From Candidatus Kaiserbacteria bacterium RIFCSPHIGHO2_01_FULL_53_29 (GTDB lineage Bacteria; Patescibacteriota; Minisyncoccia; Phycocordibacterales; UBA2100), in assembly GCA_001781125.1 (NCBI GenBank), contig MFKT01000029.1, positions 68,040 to 132,039 on the forward strand: DNA of 64,000 nt, in the 5' to 3' direction. Below are positions 9,806 through 61,327 of this stretch, piece after piece. A model generated the notes under the pieces. That model was not told the DNA's origin. It saw only the letters and a list, made by a program, of their open reading frames with translations, and ran no database searches. A program made the translations under genes and the position numbers. Position 1 is the stretch's first letter; each line of letters opens with the position of its first letter.

Positions 9806-10023
9806 ACTAAATTCTTTTTATATAGATACTATTACTACTATTAGTAGTGTGGATATTGGGGAAAAGTATTTTTTATTCAATCCCCAATCCATTTTTCTGG
9901 AGTTTGGATGTGTTGAAAAAAATGCGGATGACTCGAGTAAAGTGTTCATAACATAATTCTGATTTTTTGGGGTGGGGATTACTCGTGGTTTGTTCGATAC
10001 ATATTCACTCGATGTACACAGTG
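9806..10023. promoter_or_regulatory. Candidate oriC / DNA-unwinding region in the dnaA-dnaN intergenic spacer
   Basis: AT-rich 218-bp spacer (ttttatatagatactattactactattag) containing a near-consensus DnaA box TGTGGATAT (about 9851-9859) and weaker box-like sites. Lies in the dnaA-dnaN-rpmH neighbourhood. Confidence 0.45.
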
Positions 10024-13631: not shown

Positions 13632-14033
13632 TCAGTCTACCTTCGCCGGCGTGATGTTTTGGAGGGCTTTCAAGGTCAAAATATCCGGATTGATCTGGTA
13701 GAGAATAAGATAAATTGCAAGAAGCAAGAGGAGCCCGAACGTCACTTCGCCGAGGATGCCTTTGGCCGCGCTCTTTGTGCTCCACATATCGGCTGCTCCC
13801 ATGTAGAGGTACCCTGCATAGGCTATCCGCAAGACGGCGCCGATCGCACCGATCACAAGCGCGAATTTGAAAAGGCTGTTGACGAAATTCGAGAGATCGC
13901 CCTGCGTAGCGTAGAGCTGCCCCAATTTTGATGACCCCGGTGTTTGCGCAAGCGGTACAAAGGTTCCCACTTGGTAGAGTACAAAACGTCCGCGAGATCT
14001 CAGATACTGTAGGAATTTCTTCATGGGAATCAT
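13632..14033 (-). CDS. Small two-TM pilin-like protein (VirB2/TrbC-like candidate), last gene of the T4SS-like operon
   Basis: Start taken at MIPMKKFLQ, giving an ATGA overlap with the upstream gene's stop. Two long hydrophobic segments separated by a short loop (LFKFALVIGAIGAVLRIAYAGYLYM ... VTFGLLLLLAIYLILY). Confidence 0.45.
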   Translation of the reverse strand: MIPMKKFLQYLRSRGRFVLYQVGTFVPLAQTPGSSKLGQLYATQGDLSNFVNSLFKFALVIGAIGAVLRIAYAGYLYMGAADMWSTKSAAKGILGEVTFGLLLLLAIYLILYQINPDILTLKALQNITPAKVD

Positions 14034-15277: not shown

Positions 15278-15280
15278 GGT

Positions 15281-16327: not shown

Positions 16328-18264
16328 ACCGAAGCGAGGCGGGGTGCACTCGTGGTCGCAGTATCAGCTCCCGGGGCAGCGTGAGCAGGCGCTTGCGAGG
16401 GCAAGGTGGGTTCGTTCGCACTCGCGAGATCCATTTTAGCTTTTTTGATCGCGAGAATTTGTGAGGGGTCCGAGGTGATGATCTGATCTTCAGTATACGA
16501 TGCGATCACTTTGATGGCGACGTGTTTCAGCCCCGCGAAGAATATCCCCTCCCCCACATCCGATTCCAAGAGTAGATATTTTTCTTCGTCTGAAAGTTTG
16601 AATGTCTGTTGGACAAGATCGACCGATGTCGGCGATTGGCGCAAGAGAAGTTGGATCGAGGAGTTGGTGATCATGGGGATGCCGTAGGGCGAATTGAGGA
16701 AGTCGGAGACGTCCTGTGTGATCGTGGAAATGCCGAGATAGTATTTGCGTCCACGCTTCGCGATGGAAAAAAGAAAGGATGCCGTGTCTTCACTGCGCAT
16801 CATCCACCACGCTTCATCAATGACGAGGAGGCGCTTGCGCAACTCTTTGCGCACCGTGTTCCAGATATGGTGCGTGATGATGTACATGGCGACGGGCTTG
16901 AGGTCGTCTTCCATATCGCGCACAGAAAATACGATGAGTTTTTTATTCATGTCCACGTTGGTCGGGCGGTTCATGAATCCTGACCACGTACCCTTGGTGT
17001 ATTTCGAAAGTCGATTTACCAGCGACTCGCTCCCCTCCATGCCCGAGAGCACGAGCTCGAAGTCCGAGAGAAGCGGCGGCTCGACAAGCGCGAAGTTCGC
17101 TTCGGCGGTGATGTCTTTGAGCGCGTATGTTTCGGTAATGGCGCGATCTATGACCGCGTCTTCTTCGGGAGTGAGGCCGCCCAACATGATGCGGAAGAGC
17201 CCGACCAATGTAATGATGTTGTTGCGCAAGATGTCTCCGGGGTTCTCATCTTCGCGCGGCACGGGGAGATCGAAAGGGTTGATATGGTGCTCGCTCGAGA
17301 GTGAAATGTTGAAGTAGCGCCCGCCCACCGTCTCGGCCAAATATTCATATTCGCGCTCGGGGTCGATGACGATGACCTCTGTATCAAACATTAAACTTCG
17401 CAATATTTCAAGTTTCGTGGTATAACTTTTACCGGCGCCGCTCTTTGCGAATGTGACCGAATTATAGTTCTCTAAAGAAAAACGATCGAAAAGAATGAGC
17501 GATGAGTTGTGTCTATTGATACCGTAGAGAATACCCCGGTCCGAGGTGAGGTCGAATGAAATGAACGGGAAGATCGAGGAGAGCGGGGCGGAATTAAGCT
17601 TCGTGTGGACGTTGATCTCATCGGTCGCAAGCGGCAAGACAGAGCGGAAGCCCTGCTCCTGCTGGAAGAGCGCGGGGCGGATGTACACGAGACGCGATTC
17701 GAGGATCGAGCGGACCTCTGTCTCGACTCTGTCGATCTCCTCGCGGGTGTTGCCGTAGATCGTGAGATAGAGACCGACCTCAAAAATGCGCTCCTGTGCC
17801 TGCTGGAGAGAATCTCGCAGCTGTTCCAGATCCGAATACGCGGTATCGAGCATCGGGTCGCGCACCATGCCCTTCTGTTCGCGCGTCGAGATCTGGCTCT
17901 GCACTTCGGCGACTTTTTTCTGGAATTTTCGCAGCATCTCATTGGTGTCCATCGGATGGATGAAAATAGAAATGTCGATGACCTTGTCCATGTTGATGAT
18001 GGGGGCGAACCAGCCTGTGGTGAGGAAGCGGGGGTAGGAGATGACGAAGAATGTGCGGGCGATGCGCTCGCCCAAGTCGAGCTCGCGCGAAGAGATCCGG
18101 AGCGCGTGTGGCGCGATCACGTCCTGCAGATCCAACACCCCCGATTTGTAGATGTCCTCGGGAAGGACAGGCAAAACATTGGGCCCCTCCACTCGTTTCT
18201 TCTTGAACAGATCTAAGAGCGCCATAGACCTATTTTTGGAGTGGCATCGGCTTGCCTTCCTCAC
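16324..18264 (-). CDS. virB4: VirB4/TrbE-family type IV secretion ATPase
   Basis: Walker A FAKSGAGKSYTT, Walker B LLVIDEAWWMM, and the conserved C-terminal domain. Start may be Met 18225 (MALLDLFKKK). Confidence 0.85.
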   Translation of the reverse strand: MRKASRCHSKNRSMALLDLFKKKRVEGPNVLPVLPEDIYKSGVLDLQDVIAPHALRISSRELDLGERIARTFFVISYPRFLTTGWFAPIINMDKVIDISIFIHPMDTNEMLRKFQKKVAEVQSQISTREQKGMVRDPMLDTAYSDLEQLRDSLQQAQERIFEVGLYLTIYGNTREEIDRVETEVRSILESRLVYIRPALFQQEQGFRSVLPLATDEINVHTKLNSAPLSSIFPFISFDLTSDRGILYGINRHNSSLILFDRFSLENYNSVTFAKSGAGKSYTTKLEILRSLMFDTEVIVIDPEREYEYLAETVGGRYFNISLSSEHHINPFDLPVPREDENPGDILRNNIITLVGLFRIMLGGLTPEEDAVIDRAITETYALKDITAEANFALVEPPLLSDFELVLSGMEGSESLVNRLSKYTKGTWSGFMNRPTNVDMNKKLIVFSVRDMEDDLKPVAMYIITHHIWNTVRKELRKRLLVIDEAWWMMRSEDTASFLFSIAKRGRKYYLGISTITQDVSDFLNSPYGIPMITNSSIQLLLRQSPTSVDLVQQTFKLSDEEKYLLLESDVGEGIFFAGLKHVAIKVIASYTEDQIITSDPSQILAIKKAKMDLASANEPTLPSQAPAHAAPGADTATTSAPRLASV

Positions 18265-18895
18265 CGGGGTTGAACATCTTGTAGAGAAGTTCTATTGCTT
18301 CTTCGGTGCCGAGTTGTACCGTGCGCACGCCGGTGCGCACCAGCCCCTGCTGCACGATCGAGACACGCTGCTCGAGCTGTGTGACCTGTTCTTCGAACGA
18401 CCTGTTCGCCTCTTCGCTCCCTTTCTTCTTTTTCCCGAATGGCAAGAGTGCGAGCGGACCCCTCTGCGTGATGTCGATCGACGCAGAGTACGGCACTGCG
18501 ACGAAGAAATTTTTTGTCATGATATTGGCGGCTTCGGTGAAGCTCTTTACGAACTCGATATATTCGCGGATCTGGATGCGCATGAGGTCGTCGAGCTGCT
18601 CCTTGTACGCGGCCTCCAGTGTCGCCACATAGGGGCGGATGTCGAGCATGCGCGACTGCACGAAGATCTGCACGGAAAAATCCAGCGAGTTGAGAAAATT
18701 TTGGAATTGCACGATGAATGCGGTTTGTTCATCTTCGGATTTAAGCGCGAAGTTGATGCTCGAGGCGAGAAGTATGGCGCGCAAGCCGCCGTCTTTGAGT
18801 ACGATGACACCGTCGCGCACCTCGGAAACCGGCAGGAATTCCTGCGTTGAGCGGGCGGAGGCGCGCGGGCCTTTATCTTCTGTTTTTGTGGGCAT
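18230..18895 (-). CDS. Hypothetical T4SS-associated protein immediately upstream of virB4
   Basis: 221 aa, soluble. Co-oriented and tightly packed in the operon. Confidence 0.5.
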   Translation of the reverse strand: MPTKTEDKGPRASARSTQEFLPVSEVRDGVIVLKDGGLRAILLASSINFALKSEDEQTAFIVQFQNFLNSLDFSVQIFVQSRMLDIRPYVATLEAAYKEQLDDLMRIQIREYIEFVKSFTEAANIMTKNFFVAVPYSASIDITQRGPLALLPFGKKKKGSEEANRSFEEQVTQLEQRVSIVQQGLVRTGVRTVQLGTEEAIELLYKMFNPGEEGKPMPLQK

Positions 18896-18898
18896 AGG

Positions 18899-19408
18899 TT
18901 ACTGGCTGCGCGCGAGCGCTTGCTGCGCCGTGCGTATCGGTACGACGAGGTCTTGATCGGTGCGGATAATGTGGCGCTCCTCGTCGTTGGCGACCCCTCC
19001 CGCGATACGCTCCTTAATATCCAAACTCCACGAGAGTTCATGTAATCTGCTCTCGGAGAGCTTAGGCACGTAGATCTCGGCACTCCCCTGCGCCATCTTG
19101 CCCACCACCGGCATCGCAACACTTTTTTTGCGTGTGTTGTTCCAGAGATAGAGCTTGCTTCGCAGAAGGAAAAAGAACCCGTTCTCGAGGGCAAGAATAA
19201 ATGGCCGTCCATTGACCTGGAAAAAGGCAAGACCTGCGGCAAGGCCACCGGTGAGTACCACAAGAGGCGCCGCAAGATACATGGGCAATACGCGCCACAT
19301 GATGTAACAAGCGCCGAGGCCCCCGGCGACGTAGATGAATTGTTTAAAGGTCAAAGGGCCAAAAATCTTATCCTCGACCTCGATGAATTGTGGTACCTGG
19401 AATTGCAT
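18899..19408 (-). CDS. Small two-TM protein, VirB3/PrgI-like candidate
   Basis: 169 aa. Hydrophobic hairpin FIYVAGGLGACYIMWRVLPMYLAAPLVVLTGGLAAGLAFF, typical of VirB3-class subunits that precede VirB4. Confidence 0.5.
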   Translation of the reverse strand: MQFQVPQFIEVEDKIFGPLTFKQFIYVAGGLGACYIMWRVLPMYLAAPLVVLTGGLAAGLAFFQVNGRPFILALENGFFFLLRSKLYLWNNTRKKSVAMPVVGKMAQGSAEIYVPKLSESRLHELSWSLDIKERIAGGVANDEERHIIRTDQDLVVPIRTAQQALARSQ

Positions 19409-19414
19409 AGAGTT

Positions 19415-19445
19415 AGCTTGTAGCCGGTAGCTTGTAGCCGGTAGC
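19415..19445. repeat. Heptamer-array arm (AGCTTGT/AGCCGGT units), left arm flanking the IVS-protein gene
   Basis: agcttgtagccggtagcttgtagccggtagc. Reverse complement of the arm at 19818-19853. Confidence 0.8.
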
Positions 19446-19465
19446 TAAAAAAGCACCCGGCAAGC

Positions 19466-19816
19466 TTACCGAAGCGCTTTAATCATACCATGCAACATTT
19501 TACTCATTTCGGTTACTTGTGTACGCACGTTTTCGAACTCTTTTTCTGTGCAAAAGGCAAGCTCCTTGCTTATTAAGAGCTGCGTTTCAAGCTCAGCTAA
19601 GGAGCCGTGCGCCATTCGCAAGAAATGTCCAAAATCGGCATCGGTCCCACGCCGTCTCCCCTCTGCTATGTTTGATGGTACAGATACGGCTGCGCGACGG
19701 ATTTGTGATGTAAGGCCATACATCTCACGCGACGGGAACTTTTCGGTGAGCCGGTATATCAATGTACAAAGTGCAACCGCCTTTTTCCAGACCGCCAAAT
19801 CTTCGTGTGATTGCAT
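19466..19816 (-). CDS. Four-helix-bundle protein of the 23S rRNA intervening-sequence (IVS) family (PF05635-like)
   Basis: HEDLAVWKKAVALCTLIYRLTEKFPSREMYGLTSQIRRAAVSVPSNIAEGRRRGTDADFGHFLRMAHGSLAELETQL is the hallmark sequence of this family. ATG at 19816 preferred over the TTG at 19840, which lies inside the repeat arm. Confidence 0.8.
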   Translation of the reverse strand: MQSHEDLAVWKKAVALCTLIYRLTEKFPSREMYGLTSQIRRAAVSVPSNIAEGRRRGTDADFGHFLRMAHGSLAELETQLLISKELAFCTEKEFENVRTQVTEMSKMLHGMIKALR

Positions 19817-19817
19817 A

Positions 19818-19853
19818 GAGCTACGGGCTACTGGCTGCAAGCTACTGGCTTAC
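19818..19853. repeat. Heptamer-array arm, right arm flanking the IVS-protein gene
   Basis: gagctacgggctactggctgcaagctactggcttac. Inverted partner of 19415-19445. Confidence 0.8.
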
Positions 19854-20473
19854 TGCGGTGGCTCCCGGTAGGGATCGTCTTCAACGGACTTCCGAACTGT
19901 CGAGGCCTCGCCGGCTTTGTAGGCGGCTGATACGGGCGCGCGTTCTATTTTCCCCGTAGGTGAGGTCGAGGGCGGTGTAGCCGGTGCAACGAAGCTTGTA
20001 GCTTGTAGCTTGTAGCTTGTAGCAGATTCGGCATTCGTGCTGGCTTCAGGCTCCAAGCTACTGGCTACGGGCTGTTCTCCCAGCACTTGCGAGCGCACAT
20101 CTTCAACCCCGGTCGTATCTGCGGCCCTTGCATCCGGATGCTCGAGCTCACGCTCGAGCTGTTCGCGGACCGGTTGGAACACGATGCGGGAAACATTCGA
20201 AGCCAAGTCCTGTGCCATCTCCTGCGTAACATCAAGGTCTGCTTTGATGTTATCCGCAAGCTCCTCCGGTGGCTGGAACCCCATGAGCGTGAGCAGTACC
20301 TCGTTCTCCAGGAGTTGCCATTGGTCAAGATGCAATTTATTGGTATCCGCCAATTCCCGCAGCTGCTTCTGTATGTCGGTCGACGTAATAGCATCTTGCA
20401 ACACCTTCGGGAGCTCCTTAAACCGCTCCTTCAACTTCGCATTCAACTCATCTTGTGTCATTTTCATGTCCAT
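19850..20473 (-). CDS. Hypothetical acidic protein whose C-terminal region is encoded by a heptamer-repeat element
   Basis: N-terminal 120 aa look protein-like (MDMKMTQDELNAKLKERFKELPKVLQDAI...). C-terminal part translates the repeat (SYKLQATS). True 3' end uncertain. Confidence 0.4.
   Translation of the reverse strand: MDMKMTQDELNAKLKERFKELPKVLQDAITSTDIQKQLRELADTNKLHLDQWQLLENEVLLTLMGFQPPEELADNIKADLDVTQEMAQDLASNVSRIVFQPVREQLERELEHPDARAADTTGVEDVRSQVLGEQPVASSLEPEASTNAESATSYKLQATSFVAPATPPSTSPTGKIERAPVSAAYKAGEASTVRKSVEDDPYREPPQ
19993..20074. repeat. Heptamer-array inverted-repeat element (4 x AGCTTGT left arm, spacer, complementary right arm)
   Basis: agcttgtagcttgtagcttgtagcttgtagc, then a 19-nt spacer, then gcttcaggctccaagctactggctacgggctg. 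Confidence 0.8.
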
Positions 20474-20486
20474 ATATCAATGGGCA

Positions 20487-23363
20487 CTAGCTAGCTGGTG
20501 CGGCGGGGGCAGCGGGCGCGCCTCCTCCTGCGCCCGAACCAGTTTGTATATCTGCGAGCACGTCACGCAAGCCGGCAGTCTTCACCTTCTTTTTAAACAG
20601 GTCCGGAATTTCATCTTGTACGGCCTTATTTACAAGCGTTACTTTACCCAAAGTACGCGTGAGAATGTCCCCCTGTATTGCAGCGAACTCCTTGACAACT
20701 CCTTGAGCAGAAGTCGCCAGTCCTTTGGTCCCCTCTGTCGCCGCTTGATTCGCAAGTCTTTCCGTATCGGTCTGCCATTTTCTTTCCAGTGTCTCTCCGT
20801 ATTTTTTTTCAGCCGTAGCAAAATCATTCTGTACCCTCTTGAGATTGGGATCGTTTTCTATGTTGCCGATACGTGCTACCAATTGTTCTGCATTGCTGCG
20901 CGCATCGCGCGATCGACCAAACACCTCGTCATATTTTCTTGCTCTTTCTACGACTGCGGGATCTAGGGTAGGAATTTTACTTTGGACCTGAATGCGTGCT
21001 TGTTCGATACGATCTTCTTGGTGTCGCATGTCACTTCTGCGCTGCTCTTCAGAACTGGCGAGCTGGTCTTCAATTACTTTTCGCTGCTTCGAATCGGTAA
21101 TTGTTGAGAGCTGTGCCTTGAGACCTTGAATGACCGGATCATGTTTTGCGGCCGCCGTCGCTTTGCCCCCCGCGACTTCCGCTGCAGCGGCGTCAAGTTC
21201 GCGTTTCGCAGCATCCTTTGCTTCAGAATATTGATTCCGCTCGTCAGCGCTGAGATTGCTTGCTCGGGTCTCCGCTTGATCAATAATATCTTGTGCCGCT
21301 TTTTGTTGCGCAACAAATTTCGGATCATTGGCGAGAGCAGGATTTTCAGTTGCCATTTTCTTTAGGGAATCTCTAATGTCTTCCTGAACCGCAACGTTTT
21401 CCGGGCTGTAGAGGGTGCCATCGTTCGCCGCGGCCTTGAACGCGGTGCGGAACTCGTTGCCCACGGTTGTAAGTTGATCTTTCGTCGCTTTAGCAACCTT
21501 CTCTGCCGTTGTCAGCTGTTCTTTAAGCGGTCGTTCTCCTGCGGGATTCATTTTGCCGTCTGCTTCGTCCGCGGCGTCTTTCAGCGCAGCCTCAGCTATT
21601 TCTTTTGCGTTCTTCCGGTCCTCAACCTCCTTTCGTCGTTCGCGACGGATCCTTTCTTTCTCGATCTCCTTCACCTTTTCGTTGTCCTCTGCTGACGGTG
21701 CGATTTTTGCGGCTATTTTTTCTGCTTTTTCGGTTCGTCCTTTGACTTGGTCTGCATAACTCTTTTCGAGAGTAGTTCTCCCTGATTGTCCTGCTGCGAA
21801 ACCAGTAATGCCGACCGTTTTGGCAACGTTCTGAGCAGTTTTCGTATCCATTATATTGAAGCGACTATCCGCAAGTTTTCCTGCCTGTTCCATCGATTTC
21901 AATTTACTTGCAGCCAACCTCCTCTTTTCAGCGGCGGCTTTCCGCGTTTGCTCTGCAAGTGGAATGTTCCCCAGCGCTTCGTGTCTGTCCGCCGCCCGGT
22001 CCATAGCCGCCGCTTCATTATTTTCTCTCTTTGCGTCTTTGCCGAGTCTTTTAGCAGCAAAATATGCCGGCATGCCAATGCCCAAACGTCCTGCGCCGCC
22101 CACAAGGAAGCGGCTCCCTTGGATCAAGGGAGATAGAGCAAGAGCGCCGGCCAAATTGAATCCGGTGACAGTTCCTGCGATCTTGCTCGAGAGCTTGAAT
22201 GATATAAAGAGCATGCCGAGTACCATTACGAAGTTGAAGAGCGCGGCGATGTTGGCCCCGGGCGTCTGACTCGTCATGAGAGCGCCGAGGGTCCCACAAT
22301 TATGGCCCCCGCTACAGAGTGCTTTGCTCAAGGAGTTCGAGACATTCAACGTTATCCACAAAAAGAGCATCAATGCGGGTGCTAAGACAGCGCTCCCGAT
22401 AAGCGATTTCCACCATACATCCCATCCATAACTGCTCTTCTCCCACGCGGGAACAAGATAGCTCGCGAATGCGAGCGATGCGGTGACCATCAGGAAGATA
22501 AAAATGAGCGCCCGTGAAGCAAGGAGGTAGGTGCCGTATAAAAAGACGAGCGCGGTAGCGATGAGGAAGACGAAAGAGAGAATGCCGTAGACAAGGCCGA
22601 GAAGCGCGTTGTCGTTATTCTCCTGAATTCCGCGCAGCGCGTTGTATGAGTCGGCGATCCCGCCGACGCCGAGGAATCTCAAAAAACTTCCGGCGATGCC
22701 GTTGCCGGTAATGGTCGCAGCACCCGCCCCTGTGTTTGCGGTCGCGGACGGCGCCGCCGCCTCGTCCGCTTGTTTGAGAGCTCCATTGTAGAGCTGGAGT
22801 GCGGTGAAGTTCGACACGTCGATCATCATCTTGGTAAAAAGCAGGCTGAAGTTGATGAGAATGGCGATGATGAGTACCTTCGCGACCATTTTTTTCGCGT
22901 TGAACGTTTGCAATCCGAGAATGGTGCCGATCGCGATAAAAGTGAATATGCCGATGATAAGGATGTTGGCGATATCGCGAAATGCGCTCCACGCGGTATT
23001 GACCCCTTGCTCGATATTGTTGAATATCAGACCTCTGAAGTCGACTATGGTCGCCTTCAGCGCAAATTCGAAGAGCATACTCATCCAGGTGAGGACTGTT
23101 ATTCCGATGTACATAAAGAGCGATCCGAGACCCGCGAATATGCCCCGCATCCAACATATCGGATTTAAGTTGCTCAAATTCCATCCGCTCGAGCATGAAG
23201 TGCTCCCCGCATCATTCGCGACGCCGGAAGCCCCCACGACAGCGTTGAGACCTTGCGCATGGGTAACGGTGGGAATAGCTGTTACCCCTGCGCTGAAGCA
23301 GACCAAGAGCGCAATAAAGACGATTGCGGATCTTTGCCAACGAGTTTGTTTGAAGGTCATCAT
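20487..23363 (-). CDS. VirB6/TrbL-like polytopic membrane protein with a long C-terminal K/E/A-rich coiled-coil extension
   Basis: Signal/TM N-terminus, then about 8 TM helices over the first roughly 480 aa (TrbL/VirB6 architecture). Then about 470 aa of low-complexity charged coiled coil ending in GSGAGGGAPAAPAAPAS. Confidence 0.65.
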   Translation of the reverse strand: MMTFKQTRWQRSAIVFIALLVCFSAGVTAIPTVTHAQGLNAVVGASGVANDAGSTSCSSGWNLSNLNPICWMRGIFAGLGSLFMYIGITVLTWMSMLFEFALKATIVDFRGLIFNNIEQGVNTAWSAFRDIANILIIGIFTFIAIGTILGLQTFNAKKMVAKVLIIAILINFSLLFTKMMIDVSNFTALQLYNGALKQADEAAAPSATANTGAGAATITGNGIAGSFLRFLGVGGIADSYNALRGIQENNDNALLGLVYGILSFVFLIATALVFLYGTYLLASRALIFIFLMVTASLAFASYLVPAWEKSSYGWDVWWKSLIGSAVLAPALMLFLWITLNVSNSLSKALCSGGHNCGTLGALMTSQTPGANIAALFNFVMVLGMLFISFKLSSKIAGTVTGFNLAGALALSPLIQGSRFLVGGAGRLGIGMPAYFAAKRLGKDAKRENNEAAAMDRAADRHEALGNIPLAEQTRKAAAEKRRLAASKLKSMEQAGKLADSRFNIMDTKTAQNVAKTVGITGFAAGQSGRTTLEKSYADQVKGRTEKAEKIAAKIAPSAEDNEKVKEIEKERIRRERRKEVEDRKNAKEIAEAALKDAADEADGKMNPAGERPLKEQLTTAEKVAKATKDQLTTVGNEFRTAFKAAANDGTLYSPENVAVQEDIRDSLKKMATENPALANDPKFVAQQKAAQDIIDQAETRASNLSADERNQYSEAKDAAKRELDAAAAEVAGGKATAAAKHDPVIQGLKAQLSTITDSKQRKVIEDQLASSEEQRRSDMRHQEDRIEQARIQVQSKIPTLDPAVVERARKYDEVFGRSRDARSNAEQLVARIGNIENDPNLKRVQNDFATAEKKYGETLERKWQTDTERLANQAATEGTKGLATSAQGVVKEFAAIQGDILTRTLGKVTLVNKAVQDEIPDLFKKKVKTAGLRDVLADIQTGSGAGGGAPAAPAAPAS

Positions 23364-23505
23364 ACCCGGCTAGTACAATTTCGAATAATTCCTGCCGCAG
23401 GTCACACTGCGGAAAGGTTGCATAACGGCTGAGTCATTTTTTCTTGTCATACGTTGGTGAATATTCATACAAGGCGATTCGAAATTGTCCTGCCGGGCAT
23501 ACTCA

Positions 23506-25209
23506 TTACTTCCACTTTGTGACCCACGCCGCTCTCGTCGCATCGTTCGTGGCGTTGCACCAGCCGACCCCGGGATTTGTCGTGCCGTCCCATGAGAGAT
23601 TTGCGGGAGTGCTCCCATCAGAGCCGACTCCTGTCCATGTATCTCTCGTCGTTTGCAGCAAATTCGTCAATGAGCTCAGGGTGCTTTGCTGTTGCTGTGT
23701 GATCGCTGCCACATCCGGCGGCGTATGGAGAACAGGAGGACGCGCACTGACGAGCTGATCGAGCTCCTGGAGTGCCTGGGATTGTGTGGCGGGATTCGAG
23801 AGACGTGCAGCGATACTCGTGAGTTTTGCAAGCGTTTCATCGGATTTCTGGATGGCGGGTAGTATTTGAGCCGCCAAAGTTCCGATCTGGGAATCGATGA
23901 CCGCTTGCGCGAATTGATAGGTCGAAGTCGCAACGGTGAGACTGCCGCTTGCAGGCGGTTTGGCGGTACATTTTCTATCAGCGTCTGGTGGTGCGGTGCA
24001 CACGTTCGAAATGACGAGAGCCCAGCACTGATTCTCGAGGCCCCGCAGCTGCAATGTCGCTTGCGTGAGCAGACTCCCGATCGATTTCACGACCTGATTG
24101 TACTGCTGCTCTGTTCGCAGAGCGCCGGCGAGATTGTTGTTCGCGACATTGACGGCGGCATCCCGCAGGCCCTGCCCCGATTGCGAGGAGACCTGATCGA
24201 GATATGATGGCTGGCCGCCGATGCTTTGAGACAGGCCCGCGAGTCCCTGAGAATCAGCCACGATCTGTGTTGCCACGCCGGCATAGAGAGCTCCTATCAT
24301 CTGGCCGATGTCGTTGGCGCTTTCCAGTTGGCGCACAGAACTATCGATGACGTTCTGGAACGTGCTGTTCACGTTGGAGGCTGGCGTGAGCACCCTTTGG
24401 TTCAGGGGATCTTGCGCCCCATCGGTTAGGGCATAATAGCCGCGACCCCAATTCCATTGATCAAGCTGGTACTGTTTCGCCGCTGCGATCCTGCTGTTTA
24501 CGAGATCCTGAGCTTCAAATTTTGCATATAGAGGGACACAATCCGGATCGGCCCCGGCAAGAAAAGCATCGAAACTGAAATTCTGTGTCGGGTTGGTCTG
24601 GAACGGGGTCAGATCCCCCTCATAGGGACACGTGAGCTCGGTCTGCGGCGCCCTAGTACTTGTGTCGTAATTGACGAGTACGGCACGACTCACCGCCGCC
24701 TTGAAAGCCGGATTGAGCGAATCGAGCGCACCGCTCTGGAACCACGAAACGAATACTTGATCGCCTACGGTCAAGAGTTCCTGCCCTTCATTCACCGCGT
24801 ACTGTGGATTGCCGTTGCGACCCTCTTGGATCCCCTTGTAAGACCTTTTTAAATATGCTGCGCTGGCGGCTTCCCGCTGGCGGACTATCACTTCGCGCAG
24901 CACGCATTCTTTGTACACCAGGATCCCTGTATTGAGCTCGACGGTCGCATCGGCAACGGGCACGTATATCCCGTTTGCCGTGAGCGACCCCACATTCATC
25001 GCGAACGCGCCGTTCTGGTTGCAGTCGAAGATCCCCTGTCGCTGGTATTGATACGCCTGCGCGTTCGCAAAAAGAGGCAGAAAGCATCCCGAGACAACGA
25101 GCGCAGACAAAAGGGTCTTCTTCACCCCGTTAGAGACCGCAGGCAACGAATTTTCTTTCATCATCATTTGGTCAGTTGTTGGACGACCGGAGTCTCTAAT
25201 GGGGCTCAT
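23506..25209 (-). CDS. Large secreted protein of unknown function (T4SS-locus associated)
   Basis: 567 aa. Hydrophobic leader KKTLLSALVVSGCFLPLFANAQA. ATGA start/stop overlap with the upstream gene. Q/N/S-rich. Confidence 0.55.
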   Translation of the reverse strand: MSPIRDSGRPTTDQMMMKENSLPAVSNGVKKTLLSALVVSGCFLPLFANAQAYQYQRQGIFDCNQNGAFAMNVGSLTANGIYVPVADATVELNTGILVYKECVLREVIVRQREAASAAYLKRSYKGIQEGRNGNPQYAVNEGQELLTVGDQVFVSWFQSGALDSLNPAFKAAVSRAVLVNYDTSTRAPQTELTCPYEGDLTPFQTNPTQNFSFDAFLAGADPDCVPLYAKFEAQDLVNSRIAAAKQYQLDQWNWGRGYYALTDGAQDPLNQRVLTPASNVNSTFQNVIDSSVRQLESANDIGQMIGALYAGVATQIVADSQGLAGLSQSIGGQPSYLDQVSSQSGQGLRDAAVNVANNNLAGALRTEQQYNQVVKSIGSLLTQATLQLRGLENQCWALVISNVCTAPPDADRKCTAKPPASGSLTVATSTYQFAQAVIDSQIGTLAAQILPAIQKSDETLAKLTSIAARLSNPATQSQALQELDQLVSARPPVLHTPPDVAAITQQQQSTLSSLTNLLQTTRDTWTGVGSDGSTPANLSWDGTTNPGVGWCNATNDATRAAWVTKWK

Positions 25210-26053
25210 AGCTGTTTTTTCGCGTTGTACGAGTAGAGCCCACTGAACGATGTGAACATGTTCCGTTCGGCCTGATCATAGCTGCGCAAGAGTGCCACTG
25301 AGGCAAACGGGTCCTCCGCGTGTGCCACCAGCTGCTCAAGTGTCGCCGCGAATTCCTGCATTGCATTAAGAATAGCGAGGTGCTGCACGACAGCGTCTGC
25401 CGGAGCCGCGACATTCGCAGTGGAGGCAGCCGCATCTTTGTAATTCTTTGCCACTTCGGTGAGTTCTTTGAGGTAGGACGCATCTTTCGTTTGCACGTAG
25501 TTCCCAAAGATCTCGTATTCAGGGGTCGTGTTCTTGAAAAGCGGCTTCAGTGTGCTCTGGAGAGCAAGGCGATACGCGAGCATTGCCGCATAAGACGTGT
25601 CGGAGCTTGTCTTGACGTCTGCCTTTGTGAAGCGGCGATATGAGACCTCTGCGCGCATCAGCGGAGCGAGATCCTGTGCGATTTGCGCGCCCGCCTCCTC
25701 CGTATACGTACCCGCTTGCTGCATCTGCGCGTATTGACCGGCAAGCCGGTCCATCACCACTGCGCCAATGGAGGAGATCGCGTCGGTCGAAGACGTCGCG
25801 GATGAAAAAGATGCACTGCCGAATATCGACATCCCCGCCACGTTTTCTTTTGACGAAGAAATGTCTGTACCCGCATCCGCAGAGGCGACATAGGTCGTTG
25901 CACTTTTCTTCTCCTGCACCGATCTCTCCACGCTCCATCCAAGAACCACCATGAGCGCCAAGACAGAAGCTGCGGCGGTTATCCCAATAGCCGTGAACCC
26001 ACGACTGTTGTTGCAATAGGACAAAAAGCCCACGCATCTGTTCGCGCGTTTCG
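25206..26053 (-). CDS. Membrane-anchored protein of unknown function (start uncertain; ORF-track N-terminus runs into the repeat element)
   Basis: TM segment ITAAASVLALMVVLGW followed by an S/A/T-rich soluble domain. Upstream ORF extension translates heptamer repeats (MLQATSYWLQ), so the start is placed at the GTG/Met near 26053. Confidence 0.45.
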
Positions 26054-26075
26054 TTCTCACACAGGAAGTATAACA

Positions 26076-26171
26076 AGCTTGTAGCCAGTAGCTTGTAGCT
26101 TGTAGCAAAAAAGAGGAAAAATACGAAACACTCTCTGGCTTCAGGCTACGAGCTGCTGGCTACAGGCTCCC
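26076..26171. repeat. Heptamer-array inverted-repeat element
   Basis: agcttgtagccagtagcttgtagcttgtagc, then a 31-nt A-rich spacer, then ggcttcaggctacgagctgctggctacaggctcc. Confidence 0.8.
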
Positions 26172-26210
26172 GATTTGTCCGCGCGTAGCGCGGTCACAAA
26201 TCGCAGTCCT

Positions 26211-27104
26211 TTATGGGCTCATGGGCGTGAACGTGAAGACGCTTCCCGCATCACTTTGTGCAAAGACGACGCCATAGGCGCCGAAAAGTTCTGCCACCGC
26301 GACATAGTTTCTTGTGAACGTATCAGCCGAAGCGTTGTACGTCTGTATTGCCGCAATAAAATCACTATCGCGCTCTGCATAAGGCACCAGTGCGAGGTTG
26401 GTTCCTATCGCGATGTAGCTCTTTGCCAATTTCTGGTGCGCCGAAGCCATTGCGCTTGGCACGACGTCCATACCTTGGAGATTTTGGCCCACTTCTTTGA
26501 GAGCCCGCGCGAGCTCGCCCACGGCGGCTGCCTTATTGCTGTCACTGCGGTCCTCGACCTGATCTTTAAGCGTCTGCGCTTTCCCTTGGTTCTGTTCTTC
26601 AAAAGATCGAATGTATGAACCAATATCGTTGCCGTAATCGTAGAGTTTTTGCTGTGTCGCGCTGCGACTCTGTTGGACCGACGTGGTGCTCATAAGTCCG
26701 CTTGGTATGAATGCGTATGCATCTGTCACCTGGTTGTCAGTGCCTCGCGCCCCGCCCGAGGCGGGTCGGCCTTGGGCCGAGAGCAGTGCGATGAACGCGT
26801 TGAAATCGAATGGAGCACTCTGCTCCGTATCAGGATCTTTTACCACAGGCGGGGTATATGCGGAGGGCACGGTCAGAACATTTGGGAACACGGAGTATTG
26901 ATTTTGGGATGGCTGGGTCGACGCGGGGGCAGGAGGCGTATGCGATGATGGATTGAAGAGTGAGATCTCTGTGCCTGCCCACGTCCGTGTGCTTGCGGCG
27001 GGGGATGCCGCGGAGCGGCTGTTCACAATGAGCGCGCCCACGAGGAGAAGTGCCAGCGTTGCGGCCAATGCATCTACGTACGGGTGTGCGCGTAACCAAT
27101 TCAT
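26211..27104 (-). CDS. Membrane-anchored protein of unknown function; carries an in-frame palindromic insertion (QGRPASGGARG)
   Basis: 297 aa. N-terminal TM ALAATLALLLVGALIV. First gene of the minus-strand operon. Contains the element cccgaggcgggtcggccttggg at 26755-26776. Confidence 0.5.
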   Translation of the reverse strand: MNWLRAHPYVDALAATLALLLVGALIVNSRSAASPAASTRTWAGTEISLFNPSSHTPPAPASTQPSQNQYSVFPNVLTVPSAYTPPVVKDPDTEQSAPFDFNAFIALLSAQGRPASGGARGTDNQVTDAYAFIPSGLMSTTSVQQSRSATQQKLYDYGNDIGSYIRSFEEQNQGKAQTLKDQVEDRSDSNKAAAVGELARALKEVGQNLQGMDVVPSAMASAHQKLAKSYIAIGTNLALVPYAERDSDFIAAIQTYNASADTFTRNYVAVAELFGAYGVVFAQSDAGSVFTFTPMSP

Positions 27105-55095: not shown

Positions 55096-55143
55096 CGAAC
55101 GTTTTGTGCCGTACACTTCGAAGCTCCTTTAGGAGCGAAGTAG

Positions 55144-55214
55144 TGCGGGTATGGAGAATCGAACTCCAGCTTTGACATTGGCAATGTCATGTTCTACCAC
55201 TAAACTACACCCGC
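55144..55214 (-). tRNA. tRNA-Gly (anticodon GCC)
   Basis: Minus-strand sequence GCGGGTGTAGTTTAGTGGTAGAACATGACATTGCCAATGTCAAAGCTGGAGTTCGATTCTCCATACCCGCA folds as a canonical cloverleaf with anticodon loop TTGCCAA. Confidence 0.8.
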
Positions 55215-55901
55215 AACGTGCCCTATACTCGCATAATATTTCCTGCTCATCAACTCGTGGGGCATTAGTCGCAGCCACTCCAGAATTTTCTCCTTGAAAT
55301 AGGTACTTAAGACAAAAATGCTGCAAACCCCATACGAAAGCTTTCTTGTTTTGTGTCGACCTCGGATAGTGACACATTTATGAAAATTCTGAATTTTTAT
55401 GTTTGATCGTGTCGACCAGTACTCTCGACATCCCTCCGGATCCAAATCTGGATAAATCAACACCGAAGCTCCTATCCTCTCTGACGGAACTCGGCAAGCA
55501 TTTTTCAGAAAAAACACAAACAGTCGTATGAGTTCAGGATCTGTATTAGCGAGTCGGACCTGACCGCGTGTGCGTTTATCACCCTCTCCCCAATAGAGCA
55601 TTACTCCGGCAATGAAGAGAGGGTTGTATTTCAATGCCCCGAACTCGACTCGAGCTTCCCGCCGCGCTTGTGCGTACGCTCGGGCGAGACGCTTCCCCCG
55701 TATCGCGTCAAGCGCGATCATGTGATGGGTACTCTCGACCTGCGCCGTGCGGGCGAGTTCGGCCTTCAGTTTTCTGGACCAATTGACCTTTGAAAACCAG
55801 TCGGAGAGCGTTGCTCTTGGAATTTGCAGTTCCGCCATTATCTTCCGATAGCTCTTTCCGGACTTGCGCAGTTTAAAAGCGGCTCTCTTATCCTCGCGCA
55901 T
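55200..55901 (-). CDS. HTH plus LAGLIDADG-like homing-endonuclease-family protein; stop codon lies inside tRNA-Gly(GCC)
   Basis: Start at MREDKRAAFKLRK. Resolvase-type HTH SYRKIMAELQIPRATLSDWF. MLYWGEGDKRTRGQVRLANTDPELIRLFVFFLKNACRV resembles the LAGLIDADG motif-helix-strand of I-DmoI-type enzymes. Paralog of 60338..61021. Confidence 0.6.
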   Translation of the reverse strand: MREDKRAAFKLRKSGKSYRKIMAELQIPRATLSDWFSKVNWSRKLKAELARTAQVESTHHMIALDAIRGKRLARAYAQARREARVEFGALKYNPLFIAGVMLYWGEGDKRTRGQVRLANTDPELIRLFVFFLKNACRVPSERIGASVLIYPDLDPEGCREYWSTRSNIKIQNFHKCVTIRGRHKTRKLSYGVCSIFVLSTYFKEKILEWLRLMPHELMSRKYYASIGHVAGVV

Positions 55902-55972: not shown

Positions 55973-56983
55973 CTAGAGATTCGAATCCTGAATGAGGAGG
56001 AGCTGGGTTACCCGCGGATGATTCCAGAATGCCGCGAGGAGCCCCAGGACCGCGATCAGGAAGGCAACAAGGGGCATCCAGAGGGCTGCGCGGCACGATA
56101 CCGAGAAGTACCAGAATCCGAGGAGAAGAAGCAGGAGAACGAGGATTATCGTCGCAATACGCTCGGGCGTCCGTGCCCACGGGACAGACATCGGGAATTC
56201 GGCCCAGAGAGCCGCGCCCACGATGAGTGCGTAAAGGACAAGAAGGATGAGCCACAGACGGTAGGCGCTGGCATCAGAGGCGCAGATGCTCTTGAACGTG
56301 TTCTGCATAGTGCCGACGACGGAAGAGGTCGGTGTGGCGCTTACCGTCTCCGCCTCTTGCGAAGACGAGGCTGAAGACAGCGTGTCCGAGTCGGTCGCGG
56401 TCGTGTCGGAGGTCGGCGTAGTATTATCGGAGCCGGACGTGTTGGAAAAATTCGAGTAGGTACTCCCGCTATACGTTACCGGAGTCGCAGGAGGTGTTTG
56501 CGTGATCGGAGAGCTTCCCCCACCAATCGGTCCCGAGCCGACGCTCATCGATACAACAGCTGCGCACACCGGCTGGCCCGTGCGAGCCGAGAACAGCGTC
56601 ACCCGCAGTGGCAGCGTGCCCCTGATGGGGGTCGTAGCGATATCCACGTGCACACGAACAACACCAGAAGCCTCTACGCGGCGCGTCATTAGGACAAACG
56701 GGAGGGGCGTGTTCCCTACCGATCCCAAAAGTGCTACGTACGAGGCATCCGGAATCGTGAATTCGAAGGAATGGAGGGCCCCATTGTAGATATACGGCGT
56801 GAAATCTTTGGCAGATAGAGCGGCACAGGTGTTGGACCCAGGCGGCAGAACCTGCTGCGTCTGCGTCGGGATCTCAAGCGCGGAGACCTTCATAGGGAAA
56901 GCACTCAAAGAAACAAAAAGAGCACTCGTCGCGAGAACAAGAAGGAGCAGTTGATAAGTCGCACTTCGCACGCTGTCTTTCAT
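55973..56983 (-). CDS. Secreted/membrane-anchored protein of unknown function with a C-terminal multi-TM tail
   Basis: Start at MKDSVRSATYQLLLLVLATSALFVSLSA (signal). S/T-rich middle, hydrophobic C-terminus. The last 14 codons are encoded by tRNA-like remnant sequence. Confidence 0.5.
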   Translation of the reverse strand: MKDSVRSATYQLLLLVLATSALFVSLSAFPMKVSALEIPTQTQQVLPPGSNTCAALSAKDFTPYIYNGALHSFEFTIPDASYVALLGSVGNTPLPFVLMTRRVEASGVVRVHVDIATTPIRGTLPLRVTLFSARTGQPVCAAVVSMSVGSGPIGGGSSPITQTPPATPVTYSGSTYSNFSNTSGSDNTTPTSDTTATDSDTLSSASSSQEAETVSATPTSSVVGTMQNTFKSICASDASAYRLWLILLVLYALIVGAALWAEFPMSVPWARTPERIATIILVLLLLLLGFWYFSVSCRAALWMPLVAFLIAVLGLLAAFWNHPRVTQLLLIQDSNL

Positions 56984-57169
56984 ATGGGGCCAAACTAGTC
57001 TATAGGTGGCGTTGTCGTCAAGGAAAATGCGTGTTGTAAACAGGCATTTTAGAAAGTGGTTGAGCCATAAAATTCTAAAGGACAAACAATCTGCATGCCT
57101 CGCCTACACTGTCAAGATCGGTAGTGCCGGAAAAAAGCACAGAAGACAAAGATCTTTTAAAGCACAAAC

Positions 57170-57198
57170 TGTGGACAACTCTGTGGACATGTGGATAA
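57170..57198. promoter_or_regulatory. Three tandem DnaA-box motifs (TGTGGACAA, TGTGGACAT, TGTGGATAA) in an AT-rich 375-bp intergenic region
   Basis: Direct reading of the sequence aactgtggacaactctgtggacatgtggataaagg. The third box is the perfect consensus. Confidence 0.55.
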
Positions 57199-57346
57199 AG
57201 GACAAGCTGAAGATGAAGAGATGTCCGTTCGGATTCTTCAAAGTGAGCTTTTGAGCCATATTTCTTTATATTACGTTATGAACAGTAATGGACTGTGTCC
57301 TCAAAAGTATGTTACTTAAGTAACATAATCCAGACGTTTCGCGTGA

Positions 57347-57425
57347 ACCCCGTTAGAAGCCTCTAAATCTTGGTAAAATGATAAAAACCCAGGATAGTGA
57401 GGTTTATGGAGCTTCTAACGGGGTG
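57347..57425. repeat. ACCCCGTTAGAAGC / GCTTCTAACGGGGTG inverted-repeat element upstream of yraN
   Basis: Arms identical to the pcrA copy. 50-nt AT-rich spacer. Ends 36 nt before the yraN start. Confidence 0.8.
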
Positions 57426-57460
57426 AAAAGTCCATCAAGTGTGCTATTATTCACAGGATT

Positions 57461-57862
57461 ATGGCAGATGATCGCTTACGCAAGGAGGTAGGGAGGCTTG
57501 GTGAAGACATTGCTTGCCAATTTCTCGAGAGAAAGGGCTTCAAAATACTGGCTCGGAACTACAGAAAACCTTGGGGGGAGATAGATATTATCGCGGAAAA
57601 GAATAATTCAGTCAGATTTGTCGAGGTAAAGGCAGTTTCACGTGAAAGCTTGCCAAATGGTTCACGTGAAATGGATTACCGACCTGAGGAGATGGTTGAC
57701 TCTAGGAAGCTTAGAAAACTAGCCCGGACAGCAGCTCTATACATGGAAGTCCAGAAAGACAAGCGCGAATTCCAAATAGATGTTGTTGGGGTGATCATGG
57801 TTATGGCAAAGAGGACCGCGCGCTGCCGACTTTTTGAGCAGGCACTGGAAGGTAATCTATAA
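57461..57862 (+). CDS. yraN: YraN/UPF0102-family endonuclease-fold protein
   Basis: GEDIACQFLERKGFKILARNYRKPWGEIDIIAEKNNSVRFVEVK matches the YraN restriction-endonuclease-like fold. Confidence 0.8.
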   Translation: MADDRLRKEVGRLGEDIACQFLERKGFKILARNYRKPWGEIDIIAEKNNSVRFVEVKAVSRESLPNGSREMDYRPEEMVDSRKLRKLARTAALYMEVQKDKREFQIDVVGVIMVMAKRTARCRLFEQALEGNL

Positions 57863-58007
57863 AAGACAATGATGTCCGATAGAATGTCCTTTAGAATCTG
57901 TGCTAGTATGTTTGGGTTTTCGGGCCGTCGTATACCCCAGTAGTAGAACGCTTTGCGTTCACTACGGGGCATGCCGCCAGTCGTTTGCATGGGGAGATGT
58001 TCTTTGT

Positions 58008-58078
58008 CGGGGCGTAGTATACCGGTAGTACGCTTGCTTTGGGAGCAAGTAGACCGAGTCCGATTCTCGGCGCCCCGA
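58008..58078 (+). tRNA. tRNA-Pro (anticodon TGG), embedded in a 17-bp perfect inverted repeat
   Basis: Acceptor CGGGGCG/CGCCCCG, D-arm GTAT-ACCGGTA-GTAC, anticodon stem CTTGC/GCAAG with loop TTTGGGA, T-arm CCGAG-TCCGATT-CTCGG, discriminator A. Flanks gagatgttctttgtcgggg / ccccgacaaagaacatctc are reverse complements. Confidence 0.7.
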
Positions 58079-58123
58079 CAAAGAACATCTCCAGCAGTCT
58101 GGGGGACTGCTGTGGCCACGAAG

Positions 58124-58190
58124 TGGAAATAGACCGAGTCCCCCGCCGTCGCTAAAAGCTATGGCGGACAAGGGATTCTCGGCGCCCCGA
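58124..58190 (+). repeat. Partial duplicate of the tRNA-Pro 3' half, interrupted by a 32-nt palindromic insertion in the T-loop
   Basis: tagaccgagtcc[cccgccgtcgctaaaagctatggcggacaagg]gattctcggcgccccga. Outside the brackets it is identical to tRNA-Pro positions 50-73. Confidence 0.6.
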
Positions 58191-58205
58191 TGATAAGATT
58201 CTCTG

Positions 58206-60337: not shown

Positions 60338-61021
60338 GTGACAAGAATTGCTGCAAAAATTGCTGCCACTGAATTGAGAAAAGCAGGACATTCGTATAAT
60401 CGGATATCTGAACTCTTGGGTATTTCAAAAAGTACATTAAGTGGATGGCTTCCTGATATTCCATACACCCCAAATAAGGAAACGATAGCTCGAATTGGCA
60501 AGGCCCTAGCTGCTTCAGGGGCTGCTAAAAGCAAAATAAAAAGAGAATCCATTGAGCTCGCCCGGAAAACTGCGCACGGGGAAATTGGAAAACTGACGAA
60601 ACGCGATCTTCATATGCTTGGTCTCGGCCTTTACATAGGGGAAGGTATGAAATCGACTCAAATTACTCGTTTCGTTAATTCTAATCCGGCGATCGTGAAA
60701 ATCATCATCCGATGGTTTGTTGATGTCATTGGATTGCGGAGGGAAAATTTTACCATACGTATCCATTTGTATCCTGATTCTAATGTGCGGAAAAGTTTGC
60801 AGTTCTGGTCCGAAACAACTAACATTCCCCTTAGTCAGTTCCAGAAGACCCAGATTGACCGACGCGTAAACAAAAAAGCCTTTAAGGCGGGAAAGTTGCC
60901 GCACGGCACTGCTCACCTAACGATTCGTGCCCTCGCCGAGAAACGTTTTGGCGTTTTTCTTGCAAGGAGAATACTAGGCTGGTCAGATGTTGTCTTGGGA
61001 ACGAATGATCTGCGGGCGTAG
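60338..61021 (+). CDS. HTH plus LAGLIDADG-like homing-endonuclease-family protein; stop codon lies inside tRNA-Gly(TCC)
   Basis: HTH SYNRISELLGISKSTLSGWL. GLYIGEGMKSTQITRFVNSNPAIVKIIIRWFVDVIGL. Shares LYxGEGxK, (I/L)YPD and (Y/F)WS(T/E)T(S/T)NI blocks with the paralog at 55200..55901. Confidence 0.6.
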   Translation: MTRIAAKIAATELRKAGHSYNRISELLGISKSTLSGWLPDIPYTPNKETIARIGKALAASGAAKSKIKRESIELARKTAHGEIGKLTKRDLHMLGLGLYIGEGMKSTQITRFVNSNPAIVKIIIRWFVDVIGLRRENFTIRIHLYPDSNVRKSLQFWSETTNIPLSQFQKTQIDRRVNKKAFKAGKLPHGTAHLTIRALAEKRFGVFLARRILGWSDVVLGTNDLRA

Positions 61022-61082
61022 TTTAGTGGTAAAATACGACACTTCCAATGTTGTGTCGCGAGTTCGATTCTCGCCGCCCGCA
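61012..61082 (+). tRNA. tRNA-Gly (anticodon TCC)
   Basis: GCGGGCGTAGTTTAGTGGTAAAATACGACACTTCCAATGTTGTGTCGCGAGTTCGATTCTCGCCGCCCGCA: canonical cloverleaf with anticodon loop CTTCCAA. Confidence 0.8.
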
Positions 61083-61327
61083 CAAAAACACAAAACCGCC
61101 AAGGAGCCCGGAAAACCACTCGCCTCGCTGAAGTTTCGGCGAAGCGGGTCGGCTCTTACCATTCAGAGGTGTGCGCTTCGCGCACTCATTTTGTGATTTT
61201 GGGAAAAAGGAATTTTCGGGCATGCGATTCAACTCAACTTCTATTTTGTCCTGAGCTTGCTATATTTTTGGTTCTCAGATATTCTCGACTCGAACTAATC
61301 TTTCCGAAACCGAAGGAGGGTTGAAAG

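Follow-up and report, generated by a model that had tools for sequence, protein, structure and literature searches.

A conserved triplet of DnaA boxes beside predicted parS sites at the yraN locus of Kaiserbacteria and related Paceibacteria

This work deals with a cluster of three DnaA boxes in a DNA stretch of 64,000 nt from Candidatus Kaiserbacteria bacterium RIFCSPHIGHO2_01_FULL_53_29 (assembly GCA_001781125.1, contig MFKT01000029.1, positions 68,040 to 132,039), which was analysed at its full length and is called the window in the following. The boxes (57170-57198) are located between a gene for a signal-peptide protein on the minus strand and yraN on the plus strand (57461-57862), which encodes a PD-(D/E)XK-like protein of the UPF0102 family (Pfam PF02021). 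From left to right, the module comprises the three boxes, a GGACA/TGTCC hairpin, a palindrome with a TTAA centre, a first parS-like site, the yraN promoter and yraN itself, which hosts two further parS-like sites. A preliminary description of this DNA had placed the boxes in an AT-rich spacer of 375 bp between the secreted-protein gene and yraN. The base composition agrees with this (G+C content of 0.41 in the spacer vs 0.53 in the window), and the length is correct when counted from the TTG start of the secreted-protein gene, whereas the ATG used in public annotations (56983) gives 477 bp. The distance to dnaA (10024-11391, minus strand), formerly given as about 46 kb, was measured as 45.8 kb, and about 47 kb separate the module from the probable origin in the dnaA-dnaN spacer.

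Direct reading of positions 57167-57201 gives aacTGTGGACAActcTGTGGACATGTGGATAAagg. All three 9-mers are TTATCCACA-like on the minus strand, that is, in one shared orientation. Box 1 (57170-57178) reads TGTGGACAA on the top and TTGTCCACA on the minus strand and matches the DnaA box at 8/9 positions; box 2 (57182-57190) reads TGTGGACAT and ATGTCCACA, respectively, with 7/9 matches; box 3 (57190-57198) reads TGTGGATAA and TTATCCACA and is perfect (9/9). Boxes 2 and 3 overlap and have one base in common. With one, two and no mismatches, all of them lie within the limits (at most two or four mismatches) by which boxes of the basal unwinding system (BUS) of oriC are recognized. Sequence reading and scoring therefore agree with the three tandem boxes of one orientation, one of them perfect, that had been described before; among the earlier match counts, those of boxes 1 and 3 are right, while the 7-8/9 given for box 2 has to be lowered to 7/9. 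Perfect DnaA boxes occur only twice in the window. The second one (22352-22360, TTATCCACA on the plus strand) stands alone inside an open reading frame (ORF) of 958 aa of unknown function. A comparison of box density had also been proposed earlier, and it came out in favour of the site: within the window, the 300 bp around 57170 reach the highest box score (9.5, vs 5.0 for the dnaA-dnaN spacer). In 200 simulated windows (first-order Markov), three same-strand boxes with at most three mismatches in sum never occurred within about 30 bp. The triplet is confirmed as a real and non-random observation.

The conservation of the triplet was followed in 80 loci from Kaiserbacteria and related Paceibacteria, obtained by a scan for YraN with one genome per GTDB species. 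Two boxes 20 bp apart with a summed match of at least 15/18 were counted as a pair. Such a pair is present in 63 of the 80 species-level loci, 70-570 bp upstream of yraN and usually with a third box at +12. In these 63 loci the geometry is 0/+12/+20 and the strand is always the same as in the window, and the triplet reaches down to about 40% YraN identity. The search for pairs covered about 0.8 Mb of locus DNA on both strands (1.6 million positions) and returned 67, hence at most four elsewhere. Boxes with a shift of 1 nt were seen in four loci beyond the 63 (L041, L046, L048 and L054), and in L065 and L066 the boxes are 21 bp apart. The consensus of the whole element is aAAaC TGTGGAnAA CTC TGkGGAyA TGTGGATAA aGGACA. 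According to a position-frequency table of 64 loci, box 1 follows TGTGGAnAA and box 2 TGkGGAyAT, and box 3 keeps all nine positions across the clade; distant members differ solely at the N of TTATNCACA, where the forms TGTGCATAA and TGTGTATAA are found. A TCC[A/C]CA polymorphism is common to the triplet and the boxes of the origin. The DnaA protein of the window aligns over its full length with that of B. subtilis and retains the DNA-contact motif of domain IV (GGRDHTTVIH). Since the variation sits where DnaA tolerates it, the polymorphism recurs in the origin boxes and the contact motif is kept, DnaA is the likely binder of the triplet. We regard the three 9-mers as genuine DnaA boxes of predicted high affinity which form the upstream edge of the yraN module.

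The surroundings are conserved as well. The gene order cca (minus strand), yraN (plus strand) and a gene for a trypsin-like protease (minus strand) recurs among the relatives, with cca in 59 and the protease in 57 loci, while the immediate upstream neighbour of the module can be a secreted-protein gene, a LAGLIDADG-like ORF, a tRNA gene or cca. This bears on the suggestion that the boxes are a chance cluster, or a relic that arrived with a mobile element and stayed beside tRNA genes. Transfer RNA genes, LAGLIDADG-like ORFs and a tyrosine recombinase are indeed present within a few kb of the cluster. However, the simulations did not reproduce the cluster, and the same place, strand and spacing recur in 63 species with conserved synteny, so that both chance and a mobile-element relic are excluded; conservation refutes this view, to which we give practically no weight. 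The same YraN was also found on GCA_001781875.1 and nine other contigs. The identity of the spacer in these ten independent assemblies (100%) speaks against a chance origin too but is uninformative on conservation.

Chromosomal parS sites follow the 16-bp palindrome TGTTNCACGTGAAACA (PMC7022226). The three best matches of the window to GTTTCACGTGAAAC are all located at yraN. Site 1 (57336-57349, GTTTCGCGTGAACC, 12/14) lies upstream of the gene; site 2 (57635-57648, GTTTCACGTGAAAG, 13/14) and site 3 (57659-57672, GGTTCACGTGAAAT, 12/14) lie inside it at a spacing of 24 bp and encode V-S-R-E and G-S-R-E, respectively. These predicted parS sites, palindromes of the form TTCACGTGAA, agree with 12-13 of 14 core bases in the window, and exact 14-mers occur in the relatives L077 and L078. 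In 702 kb of locus DNA, 210 of the 252 sites with at most two mismatches fall between -600 and +400 of the yraN start. The intragenic sites cluster at two conserved positions of the gene, roughly +145-175 and +170-200. The codons of the SRE motif are TCA in 87%, CGT in 89% and GAA in 98% of cases; elsewhere in yraN the same codons account for 25%, 14% and 42%. TCA-CGT-GAA is thus fixed across about 60 species, in a lineage-specific stretch of YraN. Because this codon bias far exceeds that of the rest of the gene, the DNA palindrome itself must be under selection. In consensus match as well as in selection at the DNA level the sites behave like parS, and binding by ParB is predicted. In the more distant relatives (L067-L089) an additional good parS-like site (e.g. 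GTTTCACGTGAAAA) was seen inside cca, about 1.35-1.9 kb upstream of yraN; the cca gene of the window contains no parS-like site.

A further palindrome of 14 bp (pal2, 57311-57324) has parS-like arms around a TTAA centre. Its sequence, GTTACTTAAGTAAC, occurs as a single copy in the window. The general form GTTWC-N3-4-GWAAC was found at this place in 42 of 70 loci and in only 6 copies elsewhere in 658 kb, and pal2 precedes parS site 1 with a constant gap of 11 bp (25 bp from start to start). In L075 the intragenic sites carry an ATAT centre (GTTTCATATGAAAC). The palindromes with TTAA or ATAT centres may represent a variant site of the ParB family. Taken as a whole, the yraN module is predicted to be the centromere-like parS cluster of the chromosome in Kaiserbacteria and related Paceibacteria. 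It is origin-proximal in both cases where its position is visible, namely in the window and in locus L044, where it lies about 5.6 kb from dnaA.

DnaA boxes and parS-like sites adjoin each other in the window, with 137 bp between box 3 and parS site 1, as well as in the relatives, which is the arrangement of a centromere-type DnaA site. Where YraN does not contain the parS-encoding SRE motifs, as in Yanofskybacteria and others (L068, L083-L086, L088 and L090), the triplet is absent too. An instructive case is L073, where an opposite-strand gene for a membrane protein is inserted between the module and yraN. Here the GGACA hairpin is flanked by the boxes as an inverted pair (4800-5140; TGTGCATAA..TGGGGATAA / TTATCCCCA..TTATGCACA TTATGCACA). 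The boxes have stayed together with pal2 and three parS sites at a distance of more than 1 kb from yraN, whereas one parS site and the two intragenic sites remain with the gene. The boxes are thus linked to the parS cluster and not to the yraN promoter.

This observation is relevant for another explanation, in which the triplet is a plain operator: DnaA would act as a transcription factor on a promoter of the spacer, either a distal yraN promoter located some 40-60 bp past box 3 or that of the divergent secreted-protein gene, and the nearby parS sites would be incidental. DnaA-box clusters at promoters are known, for example at sda in B. subtilis (PMC6399470). In many loci a -10-like element followed by AAGCCAT is found 37-44 nt after box 3, and the orientation of the boxes is always that of yraN. 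In the window the spacer holds the motif TTTTGAGCCATAT (57249-57261), in which ATGGCT precedes a TAAAAT-like hexamer of the opposite strand. The ATGGCT motif (complement TTTTAAGCCAT(at)) lies between boxes and palindromes in most loci, and in L061, L065 and L066 it forms a palindrome TGGCT-N6-AGCCA. It is possibly a promoter or a half-palindrome; an assignment of AGCCAT to a sigma-70 -10 region, a sigma-54-like site or a half-palindrome was tried, and none was convincing. The promoter motifs near the boxes are promoter-like at the level of the consensus only. Against an operator, the AGCCAT/ATGGCT motif flips its orientation among species, the upstream neighbour changes from locus to locus, the boxes persist in L073 in spite of the opposing gene, and yraN orthologues without parS have no boxes. 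Moreover, yraN has a promoter of its own, from which the boxes are typically separated by over 100 bp of DNA that includes parS. In the window this promoter-like site (57423-57450, plus strand) consists of GTGAAA, 16 nt and TG-n-TATTAT, and a TATAAT-like hexamer just before the ATG of yraN is conserved in most relatives. As the -10 hexamer ends 10 nt before the ATG, the yraN mRNA probably starts without a leader or with a very short one. We consider the operator rather unlikely, but it is the main competitor of the explanation that we favour. A fourth DnaA-box-like 9-mer (TTATTCACA, 57447-57455, plus strand), which fits TTATNCACA in the opposite orientation, overlaps the -10 hexamer of yraN; it is not conserved among the yraN loci of the relatives.

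The hairpin directly after box 3 (57199-57229, plus strand) has the form aGGACA-loop-TGTCC(g/t)tt. Of 64 loci, 53 can form this stem with 5 bp or more; its arms are conserved in sequence, and in relatives it is often longer (AAAGGACA/TGTCCTTT). On average the stems are modestly longer than at control positions (6.2 vs 5.0 bp). G-T pairs are frequent and are compatible with an RNA of the plus strand only. As a genome-wide element GGACA...TGTCC showed no enrichment in the window (21 observed vs 24 expected). These properties could be understood if the region gave rise to a short transcript in which GGA motifs (three times UGUGGAUA and AGGACA) and the GGACA/UGUCC hairpin act as a protein sponge of the CsrB type. 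In its favour, boxes 1 and 2 never vary in their GGA core, the G-U pairs of the hairpin are tolerated on the plus strand only, and there is an A/T-rich tract 10-14 nt upstream of box 1. On the other hand, the nine positions of the DnaA box are kept beyond GGA, and the distant forms of box 3, TGTGCATAA and TGTGTATAA, lose GGA and keep the DnaA consensus, for which reason CsrA-type GGA repeats were rejected. No -10 hexamer is conserved at a fixed distance upstream, and no intrinsic terminator was called at the hairpin by the terminator scan, so that this candidate was dropped as well. A comparison with Rfam, for the whole window at the gathering threshold and for 56800-58200 at E-values up to 10, revealed tRNAs only; the spacer is covered by no known RNA family. 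Such a regulatory RNA is therefore very improbable. Two small ORFs over the boxes (57006-57254 on the plus strand, annotated with 75 aa in one NCBI record, and 57104-57259 on the minus strand) were rejected because the variation of the boxes is not 3-periodic and their flanks are not conserved.

In the preliminary description, a displaced oriC or DNA unwinding element at 57 kb was considered. The grammar of the BUS requires a box, a spacer of 0-16 bp and at least three NAN trios with the consensus 3'-GAT-5' (PMC8287927). Precisely this arrangement is found on the minus strand of the dnaA-dnaN spacer (9806-9865), directly upstream of dnaN (8708-9805, minus strand): TTTTCCCCA ATATCCACA c TAC TAA TAG TAG TAA TAG TAT ctatataaaaagaatttagt ATG, where the last codon is the start of dnaN. 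It comprises two abutting boxes (9865-9857 and 9856-9848), one with 8/9 and the other with 7/9 matches, a spacer of 1 nt, seven consecutive TAN trios (9846-9826) and an AT-rich tract which runs to the dnaN start codon. Formerly, a single near-consensus box had been noted in this spacer; the 8/9 box is correct, whereas the abutting 7/9 box and the seven trios had been missed. The only run of at least five TAN in the window is located here (9826-9847), and runs of at least six occurred in none of 200 shuffles. A metagenome scan with DnaN delivered 66 related loci, and the region upstream of dnaN was retained in 60 of them. In 52 of these 60, at least four TAN trios follow directly after tandem boxes and precede an AT-rich tract and the dnaN start. 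Seven of the other eight carry NAN arrays at this place (CAA CAA CAG ..., or TAA TAG AAG TAA TAG), and only the distant L154 (31% identity) has no trio or NAN array upstream of dnaN. The core TAATAGTAGTAATAGTAT is nearly invariant in the related metagenomic loci. The skew check that had been set beforehand for a displaced origin gave a cumulative G-C minimum of the 64 kb at 9838, inside the module of the dnaA-dnaN spacer, and merely local wiggle at 50-56 kb. The yidC-jag cluster is divergent from dnaA, and in L044 rpmH adjoins dnaA, which is the canonical neighbourhood. From the box/trio/AT-rich module, its conservation, the skew minimum and this neighbourhood, we therefore place the origin between dnaA and dnaN, which is likely the real oriC; the cluster at 57 kb would then not be an origin.

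A second or displaced origin, at which bound DnaA opens the adjacent AT-rich spacer, has some points in its favour: the site is the best box cluster of the window and its spacer is AT-rich, origins apart from dnaA exist, as in E. coli (PMC8287927), and parS sites are usually found near origins. However, the triplet shares only the boxes with an origin; trios, coincidence with the skew minimum of the 64 kb and linkage to dnaA/dnaN are all lacking. No DnaA-trio array (at least three NAN) was found within 16 bp of the triplet on either side, neither in the window nor in the relatives. The minus strand past box 1 reads GTTTGTGCTTTAAAAGATC, which contains no frame with three NAN, and the relatives read GTTTT... 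at this place. A box pair of the triplet type is absent from the 66 dnaN loci (none within 3 kb of dnaN), and yraN has no fixed distance from dnaA (46 kb in the window, 5.6 kb in L044). With the complete and conserved module at dnaA-dnaN, this possibility is already largely refuted, and we regard it as highly improbable. As a separate observation, the region right of the origin (14030-27104) is a run of minus-strand genes, including one for a VirB4/TraG-like ATPase (16324-18264) and several large ORFs without a Pfam match. These genes point against the presumed rightward fork, yet the GC skew of the plus strand is positive there.

Some further features lie around the module. A strong inverted repeat (57347-57424, ACCCCGTTAGAAGC ... 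GCTTCTAACGGGGT) has arms of 14 bp, a folding energy of -20 kcal/mol and a z-score of -4.7. It seems to interrupt parS site 1 as an insertion in its right arm, flanked by GTGAA/TGAA, and is found in a subset of the relatives only (L011, L012, L026 and L035), with compensatory changes in the arms. By its sequence it looks like a miniature palindromic insertion. The yraN module is flanked on both sides by two paralogous ORFs (55143-55901 and 60338-61083) in which an N-terminal HTH_23 domain is combined with a LAGLIDADG-like GEG motif. Both abut or overlap a gene for tRNA-Gly (GCC at 55143-55214, UCC at 61012-61083), and homologues are placed in the same way in some relatives only. For a protein of 693 aa in the left flank, the look-up gave no record.

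Which role could the triplet play in this module? We favour a function as an origin-proximal docking site for DnaA at a centromere-like parS cluster, which couples the status of the initiator to segregation of the origin region, and would put the probability of this explanation at roughly one half. In this mechanism, domain IV of DnaA would occupy the triplet and ParB the parS-like palindromes, so that a small DnaA oligomer would be docked directly beside the partition complex of ParB and parS, at its edge. The triplet would serve as an origin-proximal docking or titration point, as a sink or as a sensor, and its copy number would double early because it is presumably replicated soon after initiation. 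By this means, it could couple the state of the initiator to how the origin region is organised or segregated, and it may in addition gate transcription entering parS and yraN. It would neither unwind DNA nor serve as an origin. Among the three readings offered in the preliminary description, the datA-like titration or regulatory site comes closest, since a conserved cluster outside oriC is what we find; membership in a parS-like module had been missed there.

Several points weigh against the proposed docking site. No match to ParA or ParB was obtained by tblastn in 1.23 Mb of related DNA with approximate queries (B. subtilis Spo0J and Soj). Pfam scans of 40 window proteins and the gene lists of the flanks contained no ParBc domain. 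The distance between box 3 and parS site 1 varies from about 30 to 330 bp in the relatives. Boxes 2 and 3 can not both be occupied in the canonical way because of their one-base overlap. The co-occurrence of boxes and parS is confined to one clade, so the association may go back to a single ancestral event. Finally, the promoter-like motifs between the boxes and yraN leave room for a plain transcriptional role. In the literature, we found no paper on parS or ParB in Patescibacteria, nor on DnaA boxes at yraN.

A more far-reaching version would be a composite centromere of DnaA and ParB in and around yraN, in which triplet, hairpin and the paired parS and variant palindromes form one nucleoprotein unit and the TTAA site represents a new specificity of the ParB family. 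We put this forward tentatively, as a possibility we would not bet on. If true, the initiator would have a conserved, origin-independent role at the centromere, which is so far experimentally known from Caulobacter only. Secondary DnaA-box clusters (datA, DARS and those of B. subtilis) are central to the timing of replication and have been mapped in few model species, and the role of DnaA at a centromere rests essentially on Caulobacter. Here, in a deep-branching uncultured lineage with tiny genomes, the strongest DnaA site, by box score in the window, is located at a parS cluster and not at the origin, and the arrangement recurs in dozens of species. Should DnaA and ParB bind there, the coupling of initiator and centromere would be either ancient or repeatedly evolved. 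At about 200 bp and with a defined sequence, the module offers a compact substrate on which recombinant proteins of the candidate phyla radiation (CPR) can be tested in vitro. For the annotation of this clade, a rule can be given: oriC is the box/trio/AT-rich module upstream of dnaN, and the predicted centromere lies at yraN.

Compared with known systems, and as far as can be judged from the sequence, the triplet behaves like known secondary DnaA sites and has the features expected of a cluster outside oriC as well as of a DnaA site adjacent to a centromere. Like datA and the DnaA-box clusters of B. subtilis, it consists of good boxes outside oriC in an intergenic, origin-proximal position, and its near-consensus boxes are conserved in relatives. 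The datA locus comprises about five boxes over roughly 1 kb together with an IHF site. The cluster of the window, in contrast, has only three tightly packed boxes on one strand and no sequence homology to datA or the B. subtilis clusters. A compact core of three boxes outside oriC is also typical for DARS1 and DARS2 of E. coli. In the DARS core, one box is opposed to the other two; the triplet does not belong to this type because all boxes share one orientation (63 loci). With the BUS of oriC (PMC8287927), the triplet has in common tandem boxes on the same strand with a gap of no more than 3 bp (boxes 1 and 2), and it differs from it in that neither DnaA-trios nor an extended AT-rich element lie alongside.

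Chromosomal parS sites (PMC7022226) resemble those of the module (57336, 57635 and 57659), which match at 12-13/14 positions, in being clustered, origin-proximal and tolerated in a coding region. In contrast to them, the sites at yraN occur in pairs 24-25 bp apart, TTAA replaces ACGT at the centre of one partner (GTTACTTAAGTAAC), and the host gene is yraN and not parB. The closest parallel is the centromere of Caulobacter crescentus, where DnaA binds boxes in the parS region and enables segregation (Mera, Kalogeraki & Shapiro 2014, reviewed in PMC6399470). There, too, the boxes lie beside parS and apart from the site of unwinding, and the origin is a few to tens of kb away. The lineage of the window belongs to an unrelated phylum (CPR/Patescibacteria), and its module is distinguished from that of Caulobacter by the fixed 0/+12/+20 triplet, the conserved hairpin, the second palindrome and the two parS sites inside yraN. 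Whereas binding and the role in segregation have been demonstrated in Caulobacter, we infer them here from the sequence of a module that combines the same two kinds of sites.

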